The position numbers were made by a program, and so were the translations under genes. Shown piece after piece: positions 7,301 through 59,855 of a stretch of 64,000 nucleotides of DNA. Numbering within the stretch: the stretch's first letter is position 1; each line of letters starts with the position of its first letter. Below the pieces are notes generated by a model. It saw nothing but the letters and a program-made list of their open reading frames with translations, did not search any database and was not told the origin of the DNA. Source of the stretch: Eledone cirrhosa (lineage: Eukaryota); contig OZ024742.1 of assembly GCA_964016885.1 (NCBI GenBank), forward strand, positions 101,308,001-101,372,000. Direction: 5' to 3'.

Positions 7301-8945
7301 GAATCGACAGTCTTTCTGGGAGAAATATCGCGACAGCATGTGCTTGGACATCCTAATGCAATCTCGCTTCGCGTCCACACACATGAATTTACAGTTTACA
7401 CCTGAAATATACAACTGCGGTCTCATATTTCTAGAAGATATACTTTTGTAAATGGGTGACCGTCTCTTGAAGAACTACTGTATGGAATTCCCTAAAAGAG
7501 AAAATGAGGCTGTTTGTAACCGCCCCCTACTAAGGGAGACAGGCTATGGTGCTGCCAGGCTTCTGTCCTACGTTCAAGAAAGAGAAACACTTTTGAATCT
7601 TGAACAAGCTGATGTCTATACTTTTGTTTTGACCATGTTTGAAGACACCAACGGTGGCAGCCACTTCCTTGATGCGCCAGATGGCACAGGAAAGACATTT
7701 CTCCTCAACCTGCCAAAGTTCGCCAACGTGGACAGATTGCCATTGCAATGGCGTCTTCAGGAATAGCAGCAACACTGCTAGACGGCGGCAGATCAGTCCA
7801 TTCAAAATTTAAGCTTCCTCTTAACATCGGTCATGTTGAAAATCCGACCTCCAATATAAAGAAGAATTCTGATGAGGCTGCTGTCTTTCAAATATGCAAA
7901 TTGATTGTCTGGGATGAGGCAAGAATGTCCCACAAGAGCACTTGATGCAATCAATACAACGCTACAAGACCTGCACTCCAACTCTAAGCCGTTCGGTGGC
8001 GTCGTTCTGCTTCTTGCTGGGGATTTTCGTCAAACACTTCCCATTGTCCCAAAAGGCCAACCAGTTGATGAAATAGATGCTTGCATTAAACATTCTCATC
8101 TTTGGCGCTTCGTCCAGTCGAGAAAGTTAACCATCAACATGCGATCGATTCTCCACCAACAAGACGGTGTCAATTACTTTGCTTCAAAGTTATTGGATGT
8201 TGGTAATGGGAACTTACCAATCGACGTAAACGGTTTGGTTGACATAAGTACCATCGGTAACTACGTCTCCAGTCCTGAGGACATTTGCACAAGAGTTTAC
8301 CCCAACCTCTCAACAAATTACGTCAGTCATCAATGGATGTGTGAAAGGGCCATCTTAGCTCCTACAAATGCCACCGTCCAAGTTCTTAACACATGTCTGC
8401 TTCGTCAACTTCCTTCCCAAGAGCGATGTTATGCTTCGATTGATTCGATTATGGACCCGACACAAGTAACGTTTTAACCAACAGAGTTTTTAAACTCACA
8501 AGAGCCATCGGAAATGCCACCGCATAAACTCTGCCTAAGACTTGGAAGTCCCATCATACTCTTGAGAAACTTGGAACCTCCTCGGCTTTGCAATGGCACA
8601 CGCTTGGTTATAACGCAAATGTTGGATGACGTTCTCGAGGCTACAATCATTACGGGAAAAGGCGCTGGCGACTCTGTTTTTATTTCCCGAGTTACACTTA
8701 TTCCAACTGACTGTGTCTTTCCGATGAAAAGTGTCCAATTCCCCATTCGATTAAGTTTTGCAATGACCATTAACAAAGCCCAGGGGCAGTCACTAAAAGT
8801 GGTTGGGCTGGACCTCAGTATTCCATGCTTTTCACACGGACAACTGTATGTGGGATTTTCAAGAGTTGGAAACTCGGCCATCTCTTTTACTACGCTCCCG
8901 GAAGATTGACAACAAATGTGGTTTACAAGGCAGCCCTCCAAGCAG
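4347..8945 (+). pseudogene. Helitron RepHel (HUH endonuclease + Pif1-family helicase) pseudogene with many stops and frameshifts
   Basis: 23-aa STPR-like repeats; CVYC..CC zinc finger; PDLFITFTCNPKW; EW*KRGPPHAHILLW; YICKYVNKG; Walker A DAPDGTGKT; IVWDEA; LAGDFRQTLP; AMTINKAQGQSL; FSHGQLYVGFSRV. Confidence 0.95.
5688..5776 (+). other. Phase-0 spliceosomal intron (89 nt) within RepHel, acceptor decayed CAG->CAT
   Basis: VDVFAK|GTAACT...TTTCTTTCTTTTCCAT|IDTERLQWIR; removing it restores the motif that is contiguous in Helitron 2 (VDMAAKMESERL). Confidence 0.8.
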
Positions 8946-15165: not shown

Positions 15166-18100
15166 CTAGCAGAAGTGCCCGGCGCTGCTCGGGGCTGAAT
15201 TGCTTGAAAGTACTGTTAATGATTGCACTGAATTATGATTATTCAGGCAACGATTGATATAAGTTTACGCCGAATGAATCTATTTGTAAGTGTATAGAAA
15301 GCCCTATAAAGGGGTTCCTACCCCCTCGTAGAATGGTGTAAGAATTGAATGTGAGGTTGCCTTGAAAAGGGCCATGTTATTGTTCTCAACCTCAAGCCAC
15401 TTTGGATTACATGTAAAGGTGATGAATAAATCGGGTCGCCCATAATGTCATAGCGTCTTGTGTTCGCTCGTGCATGTACCATGGGCCCCCTGTATAGGTT
15501 GAGGGGAGAATGCACATCTTGCCGATGTTGCGGGCGTCAGTGTCATTCCTGATGCCGTCACGCAAATGTATGTAGGAGTCTGAGCGCAGCTGTGATTCAA
15601 TTTGATGAAGCACAGTCTCTCGGACTCCATTTTTGCAGCCATGTCAACTGCAAACTGGTGAAACAGTTCCCGTGAGCTATGCAGGGGGCTAAAATCATTA
15701 TGCCTTGTCATGAAGCGGTATGAGTAGAAAGCCATACATGAAACAGTTTTAGATGTCGCAGCAGTGGGCTCGTTTGGTTTGTGGTGAGGAATGCCGAAAT
15801 GGTACCCGTCTTCTCCGTACGGAAAAAGAAGGGGATACTGCAGGGCGTCATATGAACGATGCGTCTCATTAATACGTTGAAGACCACTGTCGCGGCTTTG
15901 AAGAACTATGTCTCGCTTATTGTGCTGTCCACCATGGAGAACTATGGCCACTTCATTGCACGAAGGAGCGTTATATCGGCGTGCGTGCTCCCCAGAAGGT
16001 CTTTTGTCAGCATCGATGACAATGGTGAAGTTTGGTGAAGGGGATGTTTCCAAGGTGTATTTGAAACTGCGAATGTAGCTGTTGTGCTCATGAAGCATGT
16101 TTTGCAGACTGAGCAGCACGTCCCTGTCAAAATTGTCAGCGTCAGTGTTTGCAGGTGGTGGAATAACGCCGAAACGCACATCAATTTGCGTATTGTAGTT
16201 TGAAATGAAGTAAATTTGAAGGAACGAAGGTTTGGAATTTTGTAGTGGCTGGAGTGACCCAATAAGGTGGTACACCTGGCCTTGGACCTTGAAAGTAGGC
16301 ATCCAACCAGTTTCTCTGACAACGTTAGCCCCGAAAGAAGTCATCTGAAATGCACAATTGTACTTCCTGATGAGTTGAAGGAATTTTGATGACCTTTAGG
16401 TCGAACCAGTAAGTAATTCCTTCAAAGGATCTGGCAGCTCCCGAAGAGGGGGCAAGCTGACCTTACCGTTTAAGCAGCACATTGCAGGTGGTTCCCCAGC
16501 CCACTTTTTAGCATTGCAGAATTTGCAATTGAAGCACATTTCCCCAATATTTATGTCGGCGCGCATCGAGTAATTGAAGTTGGGCTCATACTTGAAAGCC
16601 CGTAGATGCCAGTAAGGGCTGTGTGGACTCGTCAGACCGCGGATAGCCTCGCGCCGTCGACTGTTCCGCTGAAATGTAGAACGTTGCTGGTCTGAGTCGT
16701 GGGAACGTGGAGCATCAGTAGCAGAAGCGACGTTTGCAATGGTAATGAACCGGCCGTCTGCATCTTGAGAAGGCATGGAAGCAATGAAAGCCGCCTCGTT
16801 CCTATGAAGGTGAGTGGTCGGTAGTTCGAAACGTTCCGAAAATCTTGAAGCAGCAGTAACCGCAGCGTTTTTAGCCAGTCGAGTGGCCCTTTGTTGTGGG
16901 CCCTCTGAAGCCCTTGAAGCAGCAGCAGCAGCAGCCTTTATAGCCATGTGATTCGACCTTGTTTCCGGACGCTCTGAAGCCCTGGAAGCAGCATCGTATG
17001 AAGCCTGTTTTGCTCGGCGTGCGTTGCGCTGTTGGAAAGTTTCAGCAGCTCGTGATTCCGCTGAACGTAAGGCGCTCTGTGAAAGTCTGAAATCCTTTTT
17101 GTCGGAGGACTCGTTTGCGGTAATCGTCTTTTGCGCGACTGCTGCTGCCGTATGGCGGCCGAGGCGACTTCTCTTTTTCGGTGGCATTTTATGTGAAAAA
17201 TAAAGGGTGAAAGTTACTTAAAGATAGAAATTGTAATGTGAATGAAATGTGGAAAAATTTTGACCGTGGAAGGAAAAGAAACAAATATTTGGAGCTGAAA
17301 GAAATTGTTTAGGTAAGTATAGCGACAGAGTGTGTAAAGTGTATTGAAACGTGAGTTAAAAGAAAGAAAAGGAAGTTGTTTACGTACATGTGGCAAATGG
17401 CAAATGTTTTAGTTGTTTAATAAAATATTTGTGTAAAGTGTATAGAAACGTAAATTGAAACAAAGAAAATGAACTGACATTTTTAAGAAAGGAATTTGTT
17501 TACGTACATGTTGCAAATGGCAAATGTTTGTGCAGTTGTCAGAAATATAACCAGGGTACATTTGTGGGACTGATGTATTATAATGAATAGTCGTGTATTT
17601 GTGGTTATAAATCCTGCACCTTGTTTAATTGCTTTAAATTTTTTTGGATCAATTTATGTGAGTGTGTGTTTGTATGTGTTTGTAAATAAATCATTAAGTT
17701 TGAAGCAACTAAAAGTTAGTGTGGTTATAAATCACGCACGTTGTTTAATTGCTTTAAATGTTATTTTATCATTTGAAGTGAGTGTGTGTCTGTATGCGTT
17801 TGGAAATAAATCAGTAAGTTTGAAGTATAAAAGAGAAAGTAGCAAAATGTGTGGGTTGTAGATAGATGAAAGCAGATGATATGACAGAGTAAAACGGACA
17901 GTATCACCATCAACATGAACAATGTAAAATGAAAAGAATAATTTACTTTCATTTTACGTGTTTCAGCTTGGAAAGAGAAAGTAGCAGAAGGTATGAAGTT
18001 GTATAGATTTTGAATGGTAATGGGAAGAGTTTAGCAGTTTAAATGAGATAGGAAAATCGTAAAATATTGAGTTTTATCGATTTTTTGCGTAATTGTGGGT

Positions 18101-31356: not shown

Positions 31357-31423
31357 TATTTTATCTGATGAGGACGTACTGTTGAAGTTAGCTCAGTACC
31401 TCTGAAATATGTATAATAAAATA
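31357..31423 (+). ncRNA. Minimal type I hammerhead ribozyme
   Basis: TATTTTAT-CTGATGA-GGACGTACTG...CAGTACCTCT-GAAA-TATGTA-TA-ATAAAATA: perfect 8-bp stem I, AUA site. Confidence 0.85.
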
Positions 31424-32439: not shown

Positions 32440-34697
32440 AATAATAATAATAATAATAATAATGCTTTCTTTATTAACCACAAGGGTTTACATAAAGTAG
32501 ACATTAAGGACAGTACAGGACAATACAGGACGGTACAAATGGGCATTTCTGCGTGTAAAAAAAAACAGAGGATGTAATAAAAAATAACAATGAAAAATTC
32601 CCCAATAGGGGGGAGACTTCCGAGGGACATTTGTGGAGAAAGCCCATTAAAAGGCCACAGTGACCCTGACCACCAGGGCAAGTGCCCTCTCCCAGTTTTC
32701 CACCTTTAATTTACAGACAGATACTCAGAGTAGGCCCATTCAGACGGGCCATACTTGCTTCTTTCACCCATCTTTCAACAAAATGCTGGGAAGAGAGCAC
32801 TTCCCTCTCTACCCTGATTTTCCTTTTCAAATGAAATTTGAAAAAGTTAATCAGGGCATCACCGAAGAGGCAAGTGCTCGTCTTCAGCCCTTTCAAACGT
32901 GTCCACCATACTATCTCTTTCGCCATGGCCACCAGACAGATAAAAACTGTCTGCCCTTCCCGGCTAAAGGAAGAGGGCGGGGCAATCCTCACGATGGACT
33001 CAGCTGATAGCTGGATCCGTCCTACACGTGACAGCAGGTGTTCGACATAAACCCACAAGTCAGCAATGCTCGGACACTGGACGAGTGCGTGCAGGACGGT
33101 TTCGTCACCCTGCGCGCATCTAGGACATGCCCGGCTGACAGCACCTCCATGCCTGTAGAGTTTATCCCGAACTGGCAAAGCTCCTCGGTAGCACTGCCAG
33201 GCCAGGGATTTCTGGAAGTTGTCCATAGGCCCCGGCCCGAAAATCCTTCCGAAGAGATTGGCTAGTTGATTTTCGTCGACGCCTAGAGTTTCTCCAAGTA
33301 CGTCGTCGCTCTTCCCCTCCACTAATCCTCTATAGAACGCCAAGGTGGAGTTTCCACTGATCACATTGCCCAATTGGTCGAGGGCTGTGAGCGCCTGAAG
33401 ACATTCCAGTCTCCAAGCGCTCCCTCTCGGTCTTCGCTTGACCCAGGACTGCAGCTCCGTCAAGGAGACGAGCTGGGGAAAGACGTGTCTAGCAAACAAC
33501 GACCACACCTGATCACCGTCGAGGAATAGGTGGAGATGTCGTAGCCTGAGCGCGTGTCTGCGCATCATCAGCCACGGCATGCCCAGCCCTCCAGGTAGCG
33601 GGTGTTGACAGCAGATGGACCGCCTGACCATCGGTGCGCGTCCCTTCCACAAAAAGCGAAAGAGCAAACGCACCAGCGCAGTCAGGCGGGGCTTAGGACA
33701 AGGTACGACGGTCAGGCGGTAGTAGATGACTGACGCGATGTACGCGTTAGCCACCTCCGCTCGACCTTTCAGGGATAGCTTCCTCTCCGCCCATTTCTGG
33801 GTGAGAGAAGCCACCCTGCTCGTCACCTCGTCCCAGTTTTTGTCCGTCTGGAGGTCCGGACTGAACCAGACCCCTAGCAATTTAACCGGTCCGTCCGTCC
33901 AGCGTCCGACAACGCTGTTGGACGGCATGAACCTGCTTCTCCAGGTGCCGAGCTGCAGGCCCACTCACTTTTCCTGGTTGATCATTGCTCCTGTCACCGC
34001 TTCGTATTCTCTTAGTGTAGTGCCGATCGCCTCTATGTGTTTGGCGTTCGACACCACTACGGTGACATCGTCCGCATATGCTGACACGGATCTTCCGCAT
34101 CCTAGTTCGCGCGGGACCCCCTCAACGTCTTCAGTTTGTGCAGTAATGGCTCGAGAGTCAATACGTACAAGAGGGACGAGAGGGGACATCCTTGGCGGAC
34201 CGAGTGCATGATTTTGAACGGTTCCGAAAGGTGACCGTTCACTCTCACCACAGAGCAGATGTCGCTGTGCATGGCAGCGATCCAGCCTCTGAAGACGGGC
34301 CCAAAGCCAGCCGCCCTCAGGACTGCGGCTAGGTAACGATGGTCGAACCTATCGAAAGCTTTCAACTGATCTAAATTGATCAAGGAAAGCACCCGTGCCA
34401 GGTTCCCTAGCTACCCTCTCTACGATGTATCGCATGAGGTGGAGGTTGTCGTGGATGGATCTGTCGGGAATGGCGCCAACCTCTTTGCTAGCACCTTGGC
34501 CAAAATCTTGAACTCTGTGTTTAGCAGAGTTATGGGCCTGAAATTATCTATGTTATCCCCCTTGTTCGGATCCTTTCTCAGCAGCGCCACAGCTCCTCGG
34601 CTCACAGAGCTGGGAATTCTCCCGTTCTGTTGCTAGTTGCAGTAGACGTCCGCCAAGAGGCCTCCGAACAAGTCTGGCATCTGTACGTAAAGTTCAT
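32440..34697 (-). mobile_element. 5'-truncated Tx1/L1-clade LINE (RT + C-terminal zinc finger) with (TTA)n tail
   Basis: [58 protein letters not shown]...ETVLHALVQCP; AATAAA before the tail. Confidence 0.93.
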
Positions 34698-45652: not shown

Positions 45653-45726
45653 TAAAAAACCCTACCAGAATCGTAACGGTATATATATATATATATATAC
45701 CGTTACGATTCTGGTAGGGTTTTTTA
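45653..45726. repeat. 74-bp perfect palindrome centred on (TA)10
   Basis: TAAAAAACCCTACCAGAATCGTAACGG-(TA)10-CCGTTACGATTCTGGTAGGGTTTTTTA. Confidence 0.95.
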
Positions 45727-46171: not shown

Positions 46172-47285
46172 ATATTATATATATATATATTATATATATT
46201 ATATATTATATATATATATTATTTATATATTATATATATATTATTTATATATTATATATAAATGAGAGGTATAGAGATTGTTTTAGCATATATATATTAT
46301 ATATTATATATATATTATATATATTATATATTATATATATTATATATATATAATATATAATATATTATATATTATATATTATATATTATATATATATTAT
46401 ATATATTATATTATATATATTATATATTATAATATATAATATATGTATTATATGTGTATATATATATTATATATATATTATTATATATATATTATATATA
46501 TATTATTATATATTATTATATATATATATTATTATATATTATTATATATATTATATATTATTATATATATATTATATATATATTATATATTATTATATAT
46601 ATATTATATATTATTATATATATATTATATATTATTATATATTATTATATATATATTATATATTATTATATATTATTATATATATATATTATATATATTA
46701 TATATTATTATATATATATTATATATTATTATATATATATTATTATATATATATTATTATATATATATTATATATTATTATATATATATTATTATTTATA
46801 TATTATTATATATATTATATATTATATATATTATATATTATTATATATATTATATATATATTATTATATATATATTATATATATATTATTATATATATTA
46901 TATATATTATATATATATTATTATATATATATATATTATATATATATTATATATATATTATATATATTATATATATATATTATATATATATTATTTATAT
47001 ATATATATATATTATATATATATATTATTTATATATATATATTATATATATATATTATTTATATATATATATTATATATATATATTATTTATATTATATA
47101 TATATATTATTTATATTTATATATATTATATATTATTTATATATATATATATATATTATTTATATTTATATATATTATATATTATTTATATATATTATAT
47201 ATATTATTTATATATATTATATATATATATTATTTATATATATTATATATATATATATTATATATATATTATATATATTATATTA

Positions 47286-47348
<63 letters not shown>

Positions 47349-47644
47349 ATATTATATATATATATTATATATATATATATATTATATATTATATATATTA
47401 TATATATATTATATATATATATATTATATATATATATTATATATATATTATATTATATATATTATATATATATTATATTATATATATTATATATATATAT
47501 TATATTTATATATATTATATTATATTATATATATATATATTATATTTATATATATTATATATATATATTATATATATATTATATTATATATATTATATAT
47601 ATATTATATTATATATATTATATATATATATTATATATATATAT

Positions 47645-47676
<32 letters not shown>

Positions 47677-47833
47677 ATATATTATATATATATATATATT
47701 ATATATATATATATATTATATATATATATATATTATATATATATATATATATTATATATATATATATATTATATATATATATATATATTATATATATATA
47801 TATATTATATATATATATATATTATATTATATA

Positions 47834-47872
<39 letters not shown>

Positions 47873-47901
47873 TATATATATATATTATATATATATTATA
47901 T

Positions 47902-47936
<35 letters not shown>

Positions 47937-49305
47937 ATATATATATATTATATATATATATATTATATATATATATTATATATATATTATATATATATAT
48001 ATTATATTATATAAATATTATAATTATATTATATATATATATTATATTTATATTATATTTATATTATATTTATATTATATATATTATATTATATATATTA
48101 TATTATATATATATATTATATATTTATATTATATATATTATATTATATATTTATATTATATATTTATATTATATATATTTTATATATTTATATTATATAT
48201 TTATATTATATATTTATATTATATATATTATATATATTATATTATATTATATATTTATATTATATATATTATATTATATTATATATTATATTATATATTA
48301 TATTATATATATTATATATATATTATATTATATATATATTATATTATATATATATTATATTATATATATATTATATTATATATATATTATATTATATATA
48401 TATTATATTATATATATATTATATTATATATATATTATATATATATTATATATATATTATATATATATGATATATATATGATATATATTATATATATATG
48501 ATATATATTATATATATATTATATATATGTTATATATATTATATATATATAATATAATGTTATATATATTATATATATATGTTATATATATTATATTATA
48601 TATATATGTTATATATATTATATTATATATATATATTATATTATATATATATTATGTATATTATATTATATTATATATATATTATATTATATTATATATA
48701 TATTATATATATTATATATATATTATATATATATATTATATTATATATTATATATATATATTATATTATATATTATATATATATATTATATATATTATAT
48801 ATATTATATATATTATATATATTATATATATTATATATATATATATTATATATTATTATTATATATATATATTATTATATATATTATATATATATATATT
48901 ATATATATTATATTATATTATATATATATTATATATTATATATATTATATTATATTATATATATATTATATATATATTATATATATATATTATATATTAT
49001 ATATATTATATTATATTATATATATATTATATATATATTATATATATATATTATATATATATATTATATATATATTATATATATATATTATATATATATA
49101 TTATATATATATATTATATATATATATTATATATATATATTATATATATATATTATATATATATATTATATATATATATTATATATATATATTATATATA
49201 TATATTATATATATATATATTATATATATATATATTATATATATATATATTATATATATATATTATATATATATATATTATATATATATATTATATATAA
49301 ATTAT
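46172..49305. repeat. Degenerate (TA)n/TATTA array, ~3.1 kb
   Basis: Almost pure A/T alternation with frequent doubled T. Confidence 0.95.
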
Positions 49306-50195
49306 ATCATCATCATCATCATTTTACGTCCGCTTTTCCCTGCTTGCAAGGGTGGGACGGGTCTTATTCAGCACAGCATCTCTCCACTCGTCACGGTCCC
49401 TCGTCATCTCCACCGTGAGCTTCAATGATCTGAGGTCTGTTCTCACCACCTCCGCCCATGTTTTTCGTGGTCTACCTCTACCACGTCTTCCTTCAACTGG
49501 CATTTCCTGGCACTTCTTCACCCATCGGTCATCCTCCATGCGCATCACATGTCCATACCACCTCAGTCTCCTCTCCCGTACACTACATTCTATCCCTCTC
49601 AGACACAGTTTCTCTCTCAACACATTTATGCTGGGTCGTTCACGCACATTTACACTGCACATCCAACGGAGCATGCTTGCCTCATTTCTCTCCAGCCGTC
49701 GCATATCTTCTGCGGTAGCTGCCCATGTCTCACTACCATGCAGCATCGCGCTCCTCACACAGGCATCATACAACCGGCCTTTCGTACGCAGGGAGAAACC
49801 CTTCGTCAACAGAGGAAGCAGCTCCCTAAACTTCTTCCAACCCGTCCTTATTCTAGATACTATGGCCTCGGAACACCCTCCTCCCATGCTAATCTGATCT
49901 CCTAGGTACCGGAAGCTATCCACCACTTCTATAGCGCCCTCTCGCATTTGAAAACTGTGTCTATCAGTGCGACTTCTACTGTCTAATTTCCCTGTACATC
50001 TACTGCATACATATTTCTCCCTACCTGTTAGTTTGCCTGCTATCCCGCTACATCTCTTGTGTACCCAGGACCTACATTGTGTGCATTTTATAGAATTTAT
50101 GCCAGTTCCTTTTCTGCATATCGAACATGGCCATTTCCCTGACGGAATCAGGGTTTTGTCCTCTTTTCTACTCATCAACACTTTTGTCTTAGCTA
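49306..50195 (-). mobile_element. 3' portion of an RTE-clade LINE with a PHD-like finger and (GAT)n tail
   Basis: KTKVLMS, CSIC...C..C..WVH..C...C..C, VDSFRYLG, MLHGSETW, RRLRWYGHVMRM, GRGRPRKTW, DRDEWR. Confidence 0.93.
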
Positions 50196-50385
50196 TATTA
50201 TATATATATTATATATAGAGCTGGTCTATTCCGTATGGTCAATCGTAATGCAATAATATAGAGAGTACTCAACGTAAAGCAGTTCAACCGTCTTTGTTTT
50301 TGTAGTTGGTGGTGCTATTACGGAGTTAAATATTATAATGAAATGACAGGAGGCTGGATTTGTGTAAATCCTTGAAAGGTTTATT

Positions 50386-50443
50386 ATACTATGATCATTT
50401 CAATGACCGGGTTCCGTATGAATCCGGTGATATCATCAGGTAT
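50386..50443 (-). ncRNA. Minimal type I hammerhead ribozyme (left arm)
   Basis: ATAC-CTGATGA-TATCACCGG...CCGGTCATT-GAAA-TGATCA (palindrome)-TA-GTAT, then AATAAA. Confidence 0.8.
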
Positions 50444-50577
50444 TCGAAATATAATACGTGAATGTAATAGGTAAAATCCATGGGGCTGAAAATCGAGACC
50501 CGAGGGCGACCGCTATTCTGTTCCTTCAACCTCAGCCGGTCGTCCAATACCTATTACATTCACGTATTATATTTCGA

Positions 50578-50635
50578 ATACCTGATGATATCACCGGATT
50601 CATACGGAACCCGGTCATTGAAAGGATCATAGTAT
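50578..50635 (+). ncRNA. Minimal type I hammerhead ribozyme (right arm; stem III T->G)
   Basis: ATAC-CTGATGA-...-GAAA-GGATCA-TA-GTAT-AATAAA. Confidence 0.75.
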
Positions 50636-50687
50636 AATAAACCTTTCAAGGATTTACACAAATCCAGCCTCCTGTCATTTCATTATA

Positions 50688-55490
<4,803 letters not shown>

Positions 55491-57468: not shown

Positions 57469-57544
57469 AAAATATATATCTTATCTCAATTTACTTTATT
57501 TCATTTTATTTTATTTTATTTCATTTCATGTTATCTAATTTTAT

Positions 57545-57619
57545 TTATATATATATATATTATATATATATATATTATATATATTATATATATATATTAT
57601 ATATATTATATATATATAT

Positions 57620-57676
<57 letters not shown>

Positions 57677-57990
57677 ATTATATATATATATTATATATAT
57701 ATATTATATATATATATTATATATATATATTATATATTATATATTATATATTATATATATATATTATATATTATATATATATATTATATATATATATTAT
57801 ATATATATATTATATATATATATTATATATTATATATTATATATTATATATATATATTATATATATATATTATATATTATATATATATATTATATATATA
57901 TATATATTATATATATATATTATATATATATATATATTATATATATATATATATTATATATATATATTATATATTATATATATTATATAT

Positions 57991-58025
<35 letters not shown>

Positions 58026-58035
58026 ATATATATAT

Positions 58036-58068
<33 letters not shown>

Positions 58069-58226
58069 ATATATATATTATATATATATATATATATTAT
58101 ATATATATATTATATATACTATATATATATATATAATATATATAAATATATATATATATATTATATATATATAATATATATATATATTATATATATATAA
58201 TATATTATATATATTATATATATATA

Positions 58227-58268
<42 letters not shown>

Positions 58269-58327
58269 ATATATATTATTATATATATATATATTATATA
58301 TTATATATATATATATATATTATATAT

Positions 58328-58361
<34 letters not shown>

Positions 58362-58434
58362 ATATATATTATATATATTATATATATATATATAATATAT
58401 ATATATATTATATATATATAATATATATTATATA

Positions 58435-58503
<69 letters not shown>

Positions 58504-58582
58504 TTATATATATATATAATATATATATATATAATATATATATATAATATATATATATATATATAATATATTATATATATTT

Positions 58583-58614
<32 letters not shown>

Positions 58615-59778
58615 TTTATATTTATATATATATATTTTATATATATATATTATATATATTTTATATTTATATATATATTTTTTATATATATATATATATT
58701 ATATATATATTTTATATATATATATTATATATATATTTTATATATATATATTATATATATATTTTATATATATATATTATATATATATTTTATATATATA
58801 TTTTATATATATATTTTATATATATATATTATATATATATTTTATATATATATTATATATATATTTTATATATATATTTTATATATATATATTATATATA
58901 TATTTTATATATATATATTATATATATATTTTATATATATATTATATATATATTTTATATATATATTTTATATATATATATTATATATATATATTATATA
59001 TATATTTTATATATATATATTATATATATATTTTATATATATATTATATATATATTTTATATATATATATATATATATTTTATATATATATTTTATATAT
59101 ATATTTTATATATATATCTTATATATATTTTATATATATATTTTATATATATATATATTATATATATATTTTATATATATATTTTATATATATATATTAT
59201 ATATATATATTTTATATATATATTTTATATATATATATTTTATATATATATATTTTATATATATATTTTATATATATATTTTATATATATATTTTATATA
59301 TATATTTTATATATATATTTTATATATATATATTTTATATATATATTTTATATATATATTTTATATATATATATTATATATATATTTTATATATATATAT
59401 TATATATATTTTATATATATATTTTATATATATATATTATATATATATTTTATATATATATTTTATATATATATATTATATATATATTTTATATATATAT
59501 ATTATATATATATTTTATATATATATATTATATATATAATATATTATATATATTTATATATATTTTTATATATTTTATATATATATATATATTATATATA
59601 TATATTTTATATATATATTTTATATATATATTTTATATATATATTTTATATATATATATTTTATATATTTTATATATATATATTTTATATATATATTTTA
59701 TATATATATATTTTATATATATATATATTGTATATATATATATTGTATATATATATATTGTATATATATATTATTATA
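57545..59778. repeat. Degenerate (TA)n array with TATTA, TAATA and TATTTTA sub-domains
   Basis: Direct inspection; ends at an RTE-type tail remnant (59779-59811). Confidence 0.95.
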
Positions 59779-59855
59779 TCATCATCATTTTACGTCCGCT
59801 TTTCCCTGCTTTCCCTTATTATATATACATTTTTATATATATATTATTATATATA

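Follow-up and report, generated by a model that had tools for sequence, protein, structure and literature searches.

How did two hammerhead motifs come to lie back to back, on opposite strands, within an almost perfect inverted repeat in the genome of Eledone cirrhosa? The repeat is found in a 64,000-nt stretch of DNA, the whole of which is termed the window here, and an earlier note had described it as a 354-bp miniature element, mobilised by a Penelope-like element (PLE) and resembling a MITE. Examination of the locus and of its relatives elsewhere in the genome indicates that it very probably derives from a 2.9-kb non-coding PLE with hammerhead motifs, two 5'-truncated copies of which are joined head to head in (TA)n; the insertion was likely the work, in trans, of a Hydra-clade RT-endonuclease.

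The inverted arms (50334-50473 and 50548-50687) are 140 nt each, 99% complementary and separated by 74 nt, and, as described in the earlier note, differ at a single base, which falls in stem III. Folding of the whole inverted repeat gave -265.7 kcal/mol (z = -34), with 0/100 shuffled sequences being equally good, and predicts that a read-through transcript would form a long dsRNA hairpin. In the right arm (plus strand), stem I (ATAC, 50578-81), CTGATGA (50582-88), GAAA (50620-23) and the AUA site (50631) are followed by GTAT. The left arm (minus strand) mirrors this arrangement, with stem III reading A-TGATCA-T, and both hammerheads face outward. As such, the descriptions of each arm as a type I hammerhead motif followed by AATAAA, of a UGAUCA palindrome in the left stem III with the mismatch in the right, and of an element holding no coding ORF were all upheld. 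By contrast, the 354-bp boundaries (50334..50687) have to be redrawn, since the left arm runs on to ~50214 as a 121-nt stretch of the family tail, which 30/30 of the best genomic copies carry, such that the insertion spans 50214-50686 (Table 1). The right end does enter (TA)n, as had been reported; the left end, too, borders (TA)n. As to the 74-nt 'spacer', 69 nt are further left-copy sequence and 5 nt (TCCAA) are untemplated, this junction being absent from the other 29 of the 30 best copies.

Table 1. Features of the insertion and its flanks (window positions; U denotes a position in the parent monomer).
Feature	Position	Strand	Details
Target remnant, left flank	50195..50217		Short, (TA)-rich; no readable target-site duplication
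Tail	50214..50334	-	Monomer U1-121; ends 24 nt early at internal CTCTATA
Tail hairpin	50265..50326	-	ACTC-CGTAA...TTACG-TT-GAGTAC; form common to Hydra-clade PLE tails
Left copy	50335..50542	-	5'-truncated monomer 3' end (U2716-2923)
AATAAA, left	50380..50385	-	Immediately downstream of left hammerhead
Type I hammerhead motif, left	50386..50443	-	Palindromic stem III intact (A-UGAUCA-U); predicted cleavage 3' of 50390
Inversion junction	50543..50547		TCCAA, untemplated (5 bases)
Right copy	50548..50686	+	5'-truncated monomer 3' end (U2785-2923); without tail
Type I hammerhead motif, right	50578..50635	+	Rare T>G in stem III (A-GGAUCA-U); predicted cleavage after 50631
AATAAA, right	50636..50641	+	Immediately downstream of right hammerhead
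(TA)-rich array, right flank	50688..55489		Long; likely target

The surrounding region comprises very long TA-rich arrays broken by insertions (46172-55489 and 57542-59779). Directly left of the element, within the TA array, lies a LINE-like fragment (49324-50190, minus strand), which we take to be RTE-like, with a PHD-finger-like Pfam match. Elsewhere in the window are PIF1 helicase, Helitron-like and zf-RVT fragments (7905-8474, 15451-17217 and 32714-33964), as well as a perfect inverted repeat of ~26 bp around (TA)10 (~45655-45726).

The type I hammerhead core (CUGANGA, GAAA and UH) and stems I-III are present, and the hammerhead descriptor yielded 0 matches in 20/20 shuffled versions of 46 kb from the window. 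As had been proposed, the motifs are of the PLE hammerhead type, with stem III forming a palindrome. The suggested covariance-model check turned out negative, with an Rfam scan of 49000-52000 returning no hammerhead match at E-values up to 10. Stem II starts with U.U, contains a C.C mismatch and lacks the canonical G10.1-C11.1 pair. When stem covariation was considered, as had also been suggested, none was seen within the family (22 rows), where 0/27 pairs, whether of the hammerhead or the hairpin, presented a compensatory change, the covariation score was equalled by 311/500 shuffles and RNAalifold did not recover the hammerhead fold from the family alignment. Across seven clustered motifs of the genome, several of which may be related, stem II positions 2, 3, 5 and 6 paired in 7/7, with the pair types changing; position 4 (mostly C.C) paired in none, and slid controls were lower. 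The predicted active fold is not the minimum, be it for the monomer (-4.0 vs -14.9 kcal/mol) or the dimer (-24.6 vs -33.4 kcal/mol), and the GGAUCA change lowers predicted dimer stability from -24.6 to -15.8 kcal/mol. A cis-dimer of the two ribozymes of the window was ruled out, given their location on opposite strands. As modelled, the hammerheads are passengers in the window element, lying on opposite strands, with a read-through RNA expected to bury the sense one in the 140-bp duplex. Similar outward pairs occur in other hammerhead families (L013, L023, L037, L063, L075 and L077), indicating that the layout is routine in this genome. Three further hammerhead motifs of other PLE-type families are found in the window, at 31365 (+), 31735 (-) and 55573 (-).

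Searches of the genome (3.0 Gb, 1,796 contigs) using the 354-bp sequence as query revealed 1,351 candidates, of which 40 were scored and the best 30 loci used, while a tail-only query gave 30 loci, 20 of which were taken with 10 kb. The parent was found to be a non-coding monomer of 2,923 bp, represented by a natural copy at L064:4920-7842, that carries an internal 507-bp duplication. The longest stop-free frame is 112 aa, there is no RT or GIY-YIG ORF, and tblastn of the monomer against three PLE proteins gave no match below E 3. The hammerhead lies at U2819-2868 and the first 3' end at U2923, with the tail (~143-145 nt in the family) corresponding to positions 1-145 of the next monomer; two 3' ends ~145 nt apart are fixed, and the 5' ends vary. 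Long copies present an inverted truncated copy, then a pLTR, then a full monomer, with a tail at one end only (L064, L066 and L067), the partial tandem that makes the pLTR ahead of the full monomer being seen in L064, L066, L067 and L070. The insertion structure, with pLTR, inverted copy and tail, supports the earlier view of the element as PLE-type and retro-derived, rather than a DNA transposon. As for the question of whether copies recur in fixed form or are truncations of a GIY-YIG PLE, they proved to be variable truncations of a longer element, the parent of which is, however, non-coding and not a GIY-YIG ORF element.

Exact-pattern matching across the genome gave 5,499 hammerhead and 2,944 tail matches, both lower bounds, with reversed-pattern controls giving 0. 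Shortened back-to-back copies such as the window element number a few thousand. The GGATCA form of stem III has 14 genome matches, such that the mismatch in the window is sporadic. A further, older subfamily, ~80-88% identical, has the same ends as the main family, with no ORF linked to it in 20 stretches. Among the first 100 hammerhead matches listed, 24 neighbour pairs lay within 7 kb of each other, namely 21 head-to-head, 2 tail-to-tail and 1 tandem; in these 100, head-to-head spacing was continuous, from 109 to 2,463 bp, and 58 lacked a head-to-head partner when the exact pattern was used. Tandem arrangements were also noted. At L058:1491-2860, a retrozyme-like offshoot that arose from the monomer by internal deletion (U1-229 + U2686-2923, ~467 bp) is found in tandem and inverted form, while L046, L072 and L185 contain ~470-560 bp tandem units with a hammerhead in each, comprising a separate retrozyme-like family.

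The possibility that a discrete element of 354-470 bp, be it MITE-like or a miniature PLE, transposes whole was next considered. Many copies are of similar size, and one junction pair, which sits at microhomology beside a GC-rich hairpin, recurs in 4/30 of the closest copies. Nonetheless, these 30 copies present 25 distinct junction coordinate pairs, the 'spacer' is part of either the tailed or the opposite arm, depending on the copy, the ends are asymmetric, the spacing is continuous and no target duplication is readable in the (TA)n surroundings; the symmetric terminal inverted repeats and constant interior of a MITE are lacking. That reading is accordingly largely refuted and very improbable, and the claim that the 354-bp unit moves as such does not survive the spread of junctions and spacings. 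An artefact of assembly through long-read fold-back was also weighed, given that perfect palindromes amid AT repeats are error-prone and that none of the pieces in four contig sets reaches across the locus. The asymmetry of the ends, the untemplated bases at the junction, the divergence of the arms with age and the thousands of copies make this extremely improbable. The arms differ at 0-2 positions in young copies and at up to 13 in older ones, leaving the earlier idea of 'homogenised' arms unneeded.

In each of the 30 best copies, one side continues into the common tail and both sides end in (TA)n, and one tail per insertion was seen in 30/30 of the closest copies. When pairs chosen regardless of tail were considered, 21/22 had one tail, 1 had none and 0 had two, with 14 additional loci in these sets holding no pair; in L121, the tail is missing from both ends. 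Overall, 48 of 58 loci, 28 of the 58 having been selected by tail, were resolved as pairs, every one with one short and one tailed end. The two arms of an insertion, moreover, agree at U2787 in 44/44 pairs, where 22 disagreements would be expected were the arms drawn independently, and private variants are common to both arms in L017, L029 and L272. Subfamilies active at different times, or conversion between arms, could also be sources of such agreement. In the papers searched, subfamily variants common to both arms, as in these 44/44 pairs, were not found.

The structure of the copies suggests mobilisation in trans by a PLE protein. In the mechanism proposed, the transcript of a partial-tandem source copy would be bound near the tail hairpin by an enzyme able to nick both (TA)n strands. 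Synthesis of cDNA would be primed from one nick at the first 3' end and from the second nick where the tail ends, the template probably being a single RNA; both cDNAs would then stop early, often at the GC-rich hairpin near U2710, and would be joined back to back through microhomology or end joining. Given that separate, early-stopping cDNAs would be joined, the inverted repeat would be a by-product of each insertion and not a copied unit. A cluster of 5' truncation points was observed at U2706-2716, at the base of the GC-rich hairpin and possibly an RT stall site; the same cluster is found in L065, L067 and L068, loci not selected by the 354-bp query.

Fold-back of a single cDNA, the 3' end of which would snap back and copy itself to generate the inverted arm, in a manner close to the self-priming idea of Arkhipova 2013, would equally account for variants common to both arms. 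It would likewise fit junctions at short palindromes, with near-perfect fold-backs at U2710 in L309-L311, and overlaps of 2-4 nt in 8/26 strictly scored junctions, a lower bound in that the strict scorer failed at subfamily indels, leaving 4 unscored, with BLAST ends used instead. Since a first-end cDNA would be without a tail, however, the tailed arm should always be the longer, whereas it is longer in 17/30 and shorter in 13/30 of the closest copies. Fold-back is therefore considered unlikely, and two separately primed cDNAs remain the preferred reading.

Attention was then turned to the identity of the enzyme. The tail contains a hairpin of the form RCTC-stem-NN-GAGY, which in families of this genome appears as ACTC-stem...stem-NN-GAGT at the start of the tail. 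Three genome families (A, B and C) carry RW[KR], DKT and CxCX5C, the Hydra marks given in Craig 2021 (PMC8557442), with tail medians of 70, 78 and 133 nt, as compared with 143 nt in the hammerhead monomer family. A frame of 758 aa encoding a Hydra-type protein is located in L104. The hairpin was detected in 63/65 tails of the monomer family, in 15/23 older monomer copies, in 14/14, 14/15 and 11/16 tails of Hydra-type families A, B and C, respectively, and in 4/12, 5/6 and 2/2 tails of three other, non-attributed families, relative to a background rate of 13/5,000; it was found in 0/31 tails of a Neptune-like family with a 784-aa frame and in 0/9 of a further family. Because the motif was defined after viewing these families and is not a published criterion, published Hydra consensi were examined by eye, with the hairpin being present in 3/5 testable sequences, partial in 1 and absent in 1. 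In Hydra-2_Amil, Hydra-1_Ajap and Hydra-2_Ajap, it assumes the form GCTC-stem-NN-GAGCAC, where G-C replaces A-U, while Hydra-1_Crog has a partial hairpin, Hydra-1_Obim none and Hydra-1_Amil lacks the region. The tail hairpin was not found in the open-access papers searched.

No autonomous element similar to the monomer was found among Hydra-type families A/B and C, the Neptune-like 784-aa family and 30 GIY-YIG loci, and as such, the partner was assigned by a short motif. Intact-looking PLE frames are present in the genome; those beside copies in L077, L121, L225 and L226 were rejected as partners, being separate insertions split off by (TA)n. The (TA)n target is consistent with Hydra dependence but not specific, as other clades use it too. 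Taken together, the tail hairpin and the agreement between arms point to a Hydra-type RT that works in trans and likely makes two copies of one RNA, with trans action of a Hydra-type enzyme considered reasonably probable. Were the tail hairpin coincidental or convergent, a Neptune-like or Poseidon-like PLE could be the mobiliser instead. Indeed, the Neptune-like 784-aa family is very young (copies 98-99% identical), presents head-to-head pairs in (TA)n, and the PLE families sampled were few; still, its tail is 36 nt, the hairpin is absent (0/31) and no hammerhead was found beside its frame, such that a non-Hydra mobiliser seems doubtful.

Several related elements were noted in the course of these searches. 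Hydra-type family C (L279-L308) has a 133-nt hairpin tail, with only the GAAA half of the hammerhead core recognisable by eye. A frequent small palindromic element in (TA)n (L283, L301 and L051) presents, by eye, the same hairpin on the reverse strand. The very young Neptune-like PLE (L175-L186) encodes RT and GIY-YIG by Pfam. Finally, L226:843-4232 contains a PLE-like frame of 1,130 aa, in which a stretch rich in asparagine resembles the N-rich inserts of rotifer Penelopes.

Returning to the preferred reading of a trans-mobilised PLE copy, a broader proposal is plausible though tentative. The RCTC-stem-NN-GAGY hairpin past the first RT start may be a recognition mark of Hydra PLEs, from coral to sea cucumber to Eledone cirrhosa, that several non-coding families parasitise by keeping only hairpin and hammerhead, with a dimeric enzyme copying one RNA twice from two fixed starts. 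If true, two fixed starts on one RNA would explain head-to-head PLE insertions with exactly one tail. The window feature is itself ordinary for a PLE-rich animal genome, with the caution for annotation that such stubs resemble MITEs. With young copies numbering in the thousands, two exact 3' ends, an almost strict rule of one tail per insertion and a hairpin, seen again in published Hydra consensi, that is a candidate for recognition, the monomer family provides a small RNA substrate and clear mutations for addressing both how the RNA is recognised and whether copying has two starts. The hairpin of the tail, together with the end rule, makes the PLE insertion mechanism testable, and it is from this that the moderate interest of the locus derives.

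Compared with known systems, the copies share with MITEs short length, non-coding sequence, a long inverted repeat and high copy number, but differ in having asymmetric ends, a variable interior and a tandem-forming retroelement as parent. According to Li et al. 2026 (bioRxiv 10.64898/2026.07.22.740005), Chlamydomonas MRC1 and animal non-LTR retrozymes are likewise non-coding and PLE-dependent, the retrozymes with a type I hammerhead; those elements measure 51-972 bp and form tandem arrays, whereas the monomer is 2.9 kb and mostly inverted. Two or more short tandem hammerhead units, by which a retrozyme is recognised, were found at L058 alone among the mapped loci, the window copy being inverted. 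Opposite-strand hammerhead pairs 100-700 bp apart are described in Cervera and De la Pena 2014 (PMC4209133) for metazoan minimal hammerheads, which also share the short stem I, long stem II, palindromic stem III and, in full copies, tandem spacing near 3 kb; relative to these, the monomer family has an 8-nt stem III palindrome and C.C in stem II and lacks G10.1-C11.1.

With Hydra-clade PLEs, as presented in Craig et al. 2021 (PMC8557442), the monomer shares the (TA)n target, a hammerhead near the 3' end, the tail hairpin and U at both stem II ends, the last seen in 14/25 listed Hydra families; unlike them, it is without RT or endonuclease and has no similarity to the Hydra elements sampled. 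For a Poseidon element, Frangieh 2024 reports that both strands are nicked and extended by the purified protein, with two RNA start sites bounding the tail, and that hammerhead cleavage is protein-assisted and dispensable for insertion in vitro. That system differs from the present one in clade and in RT start sites not homologous to the cut DNA. Craig 2021 (PMC8557442) and Frangieh 2024 both call the origin of inverted, tailed PLE insertions open. Relative to PLE insertions as depicted in Craig et al. 2021 (PMC8557442) and Arkhipova et al. 2013 (PMC3846280), the monomer differs in lacking an ORF and in a tail of ~143 nt, as opposed to the published 30-40 bp. Both papers describe an inverted copy, pLTR and full monomer with a tail at one end, and in the latter, head-to-head insertions are reported to be the common form, with one inverted pLTR bearing the tail. 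Shared with these are 5' truncation, the partial tandem, the head-to-head copy, the one-end tail, the pLTR hammerhead and the microsatellite target. The locus is thus a real but ordinary PLE stub that represents a new family and adopts a layout already published.
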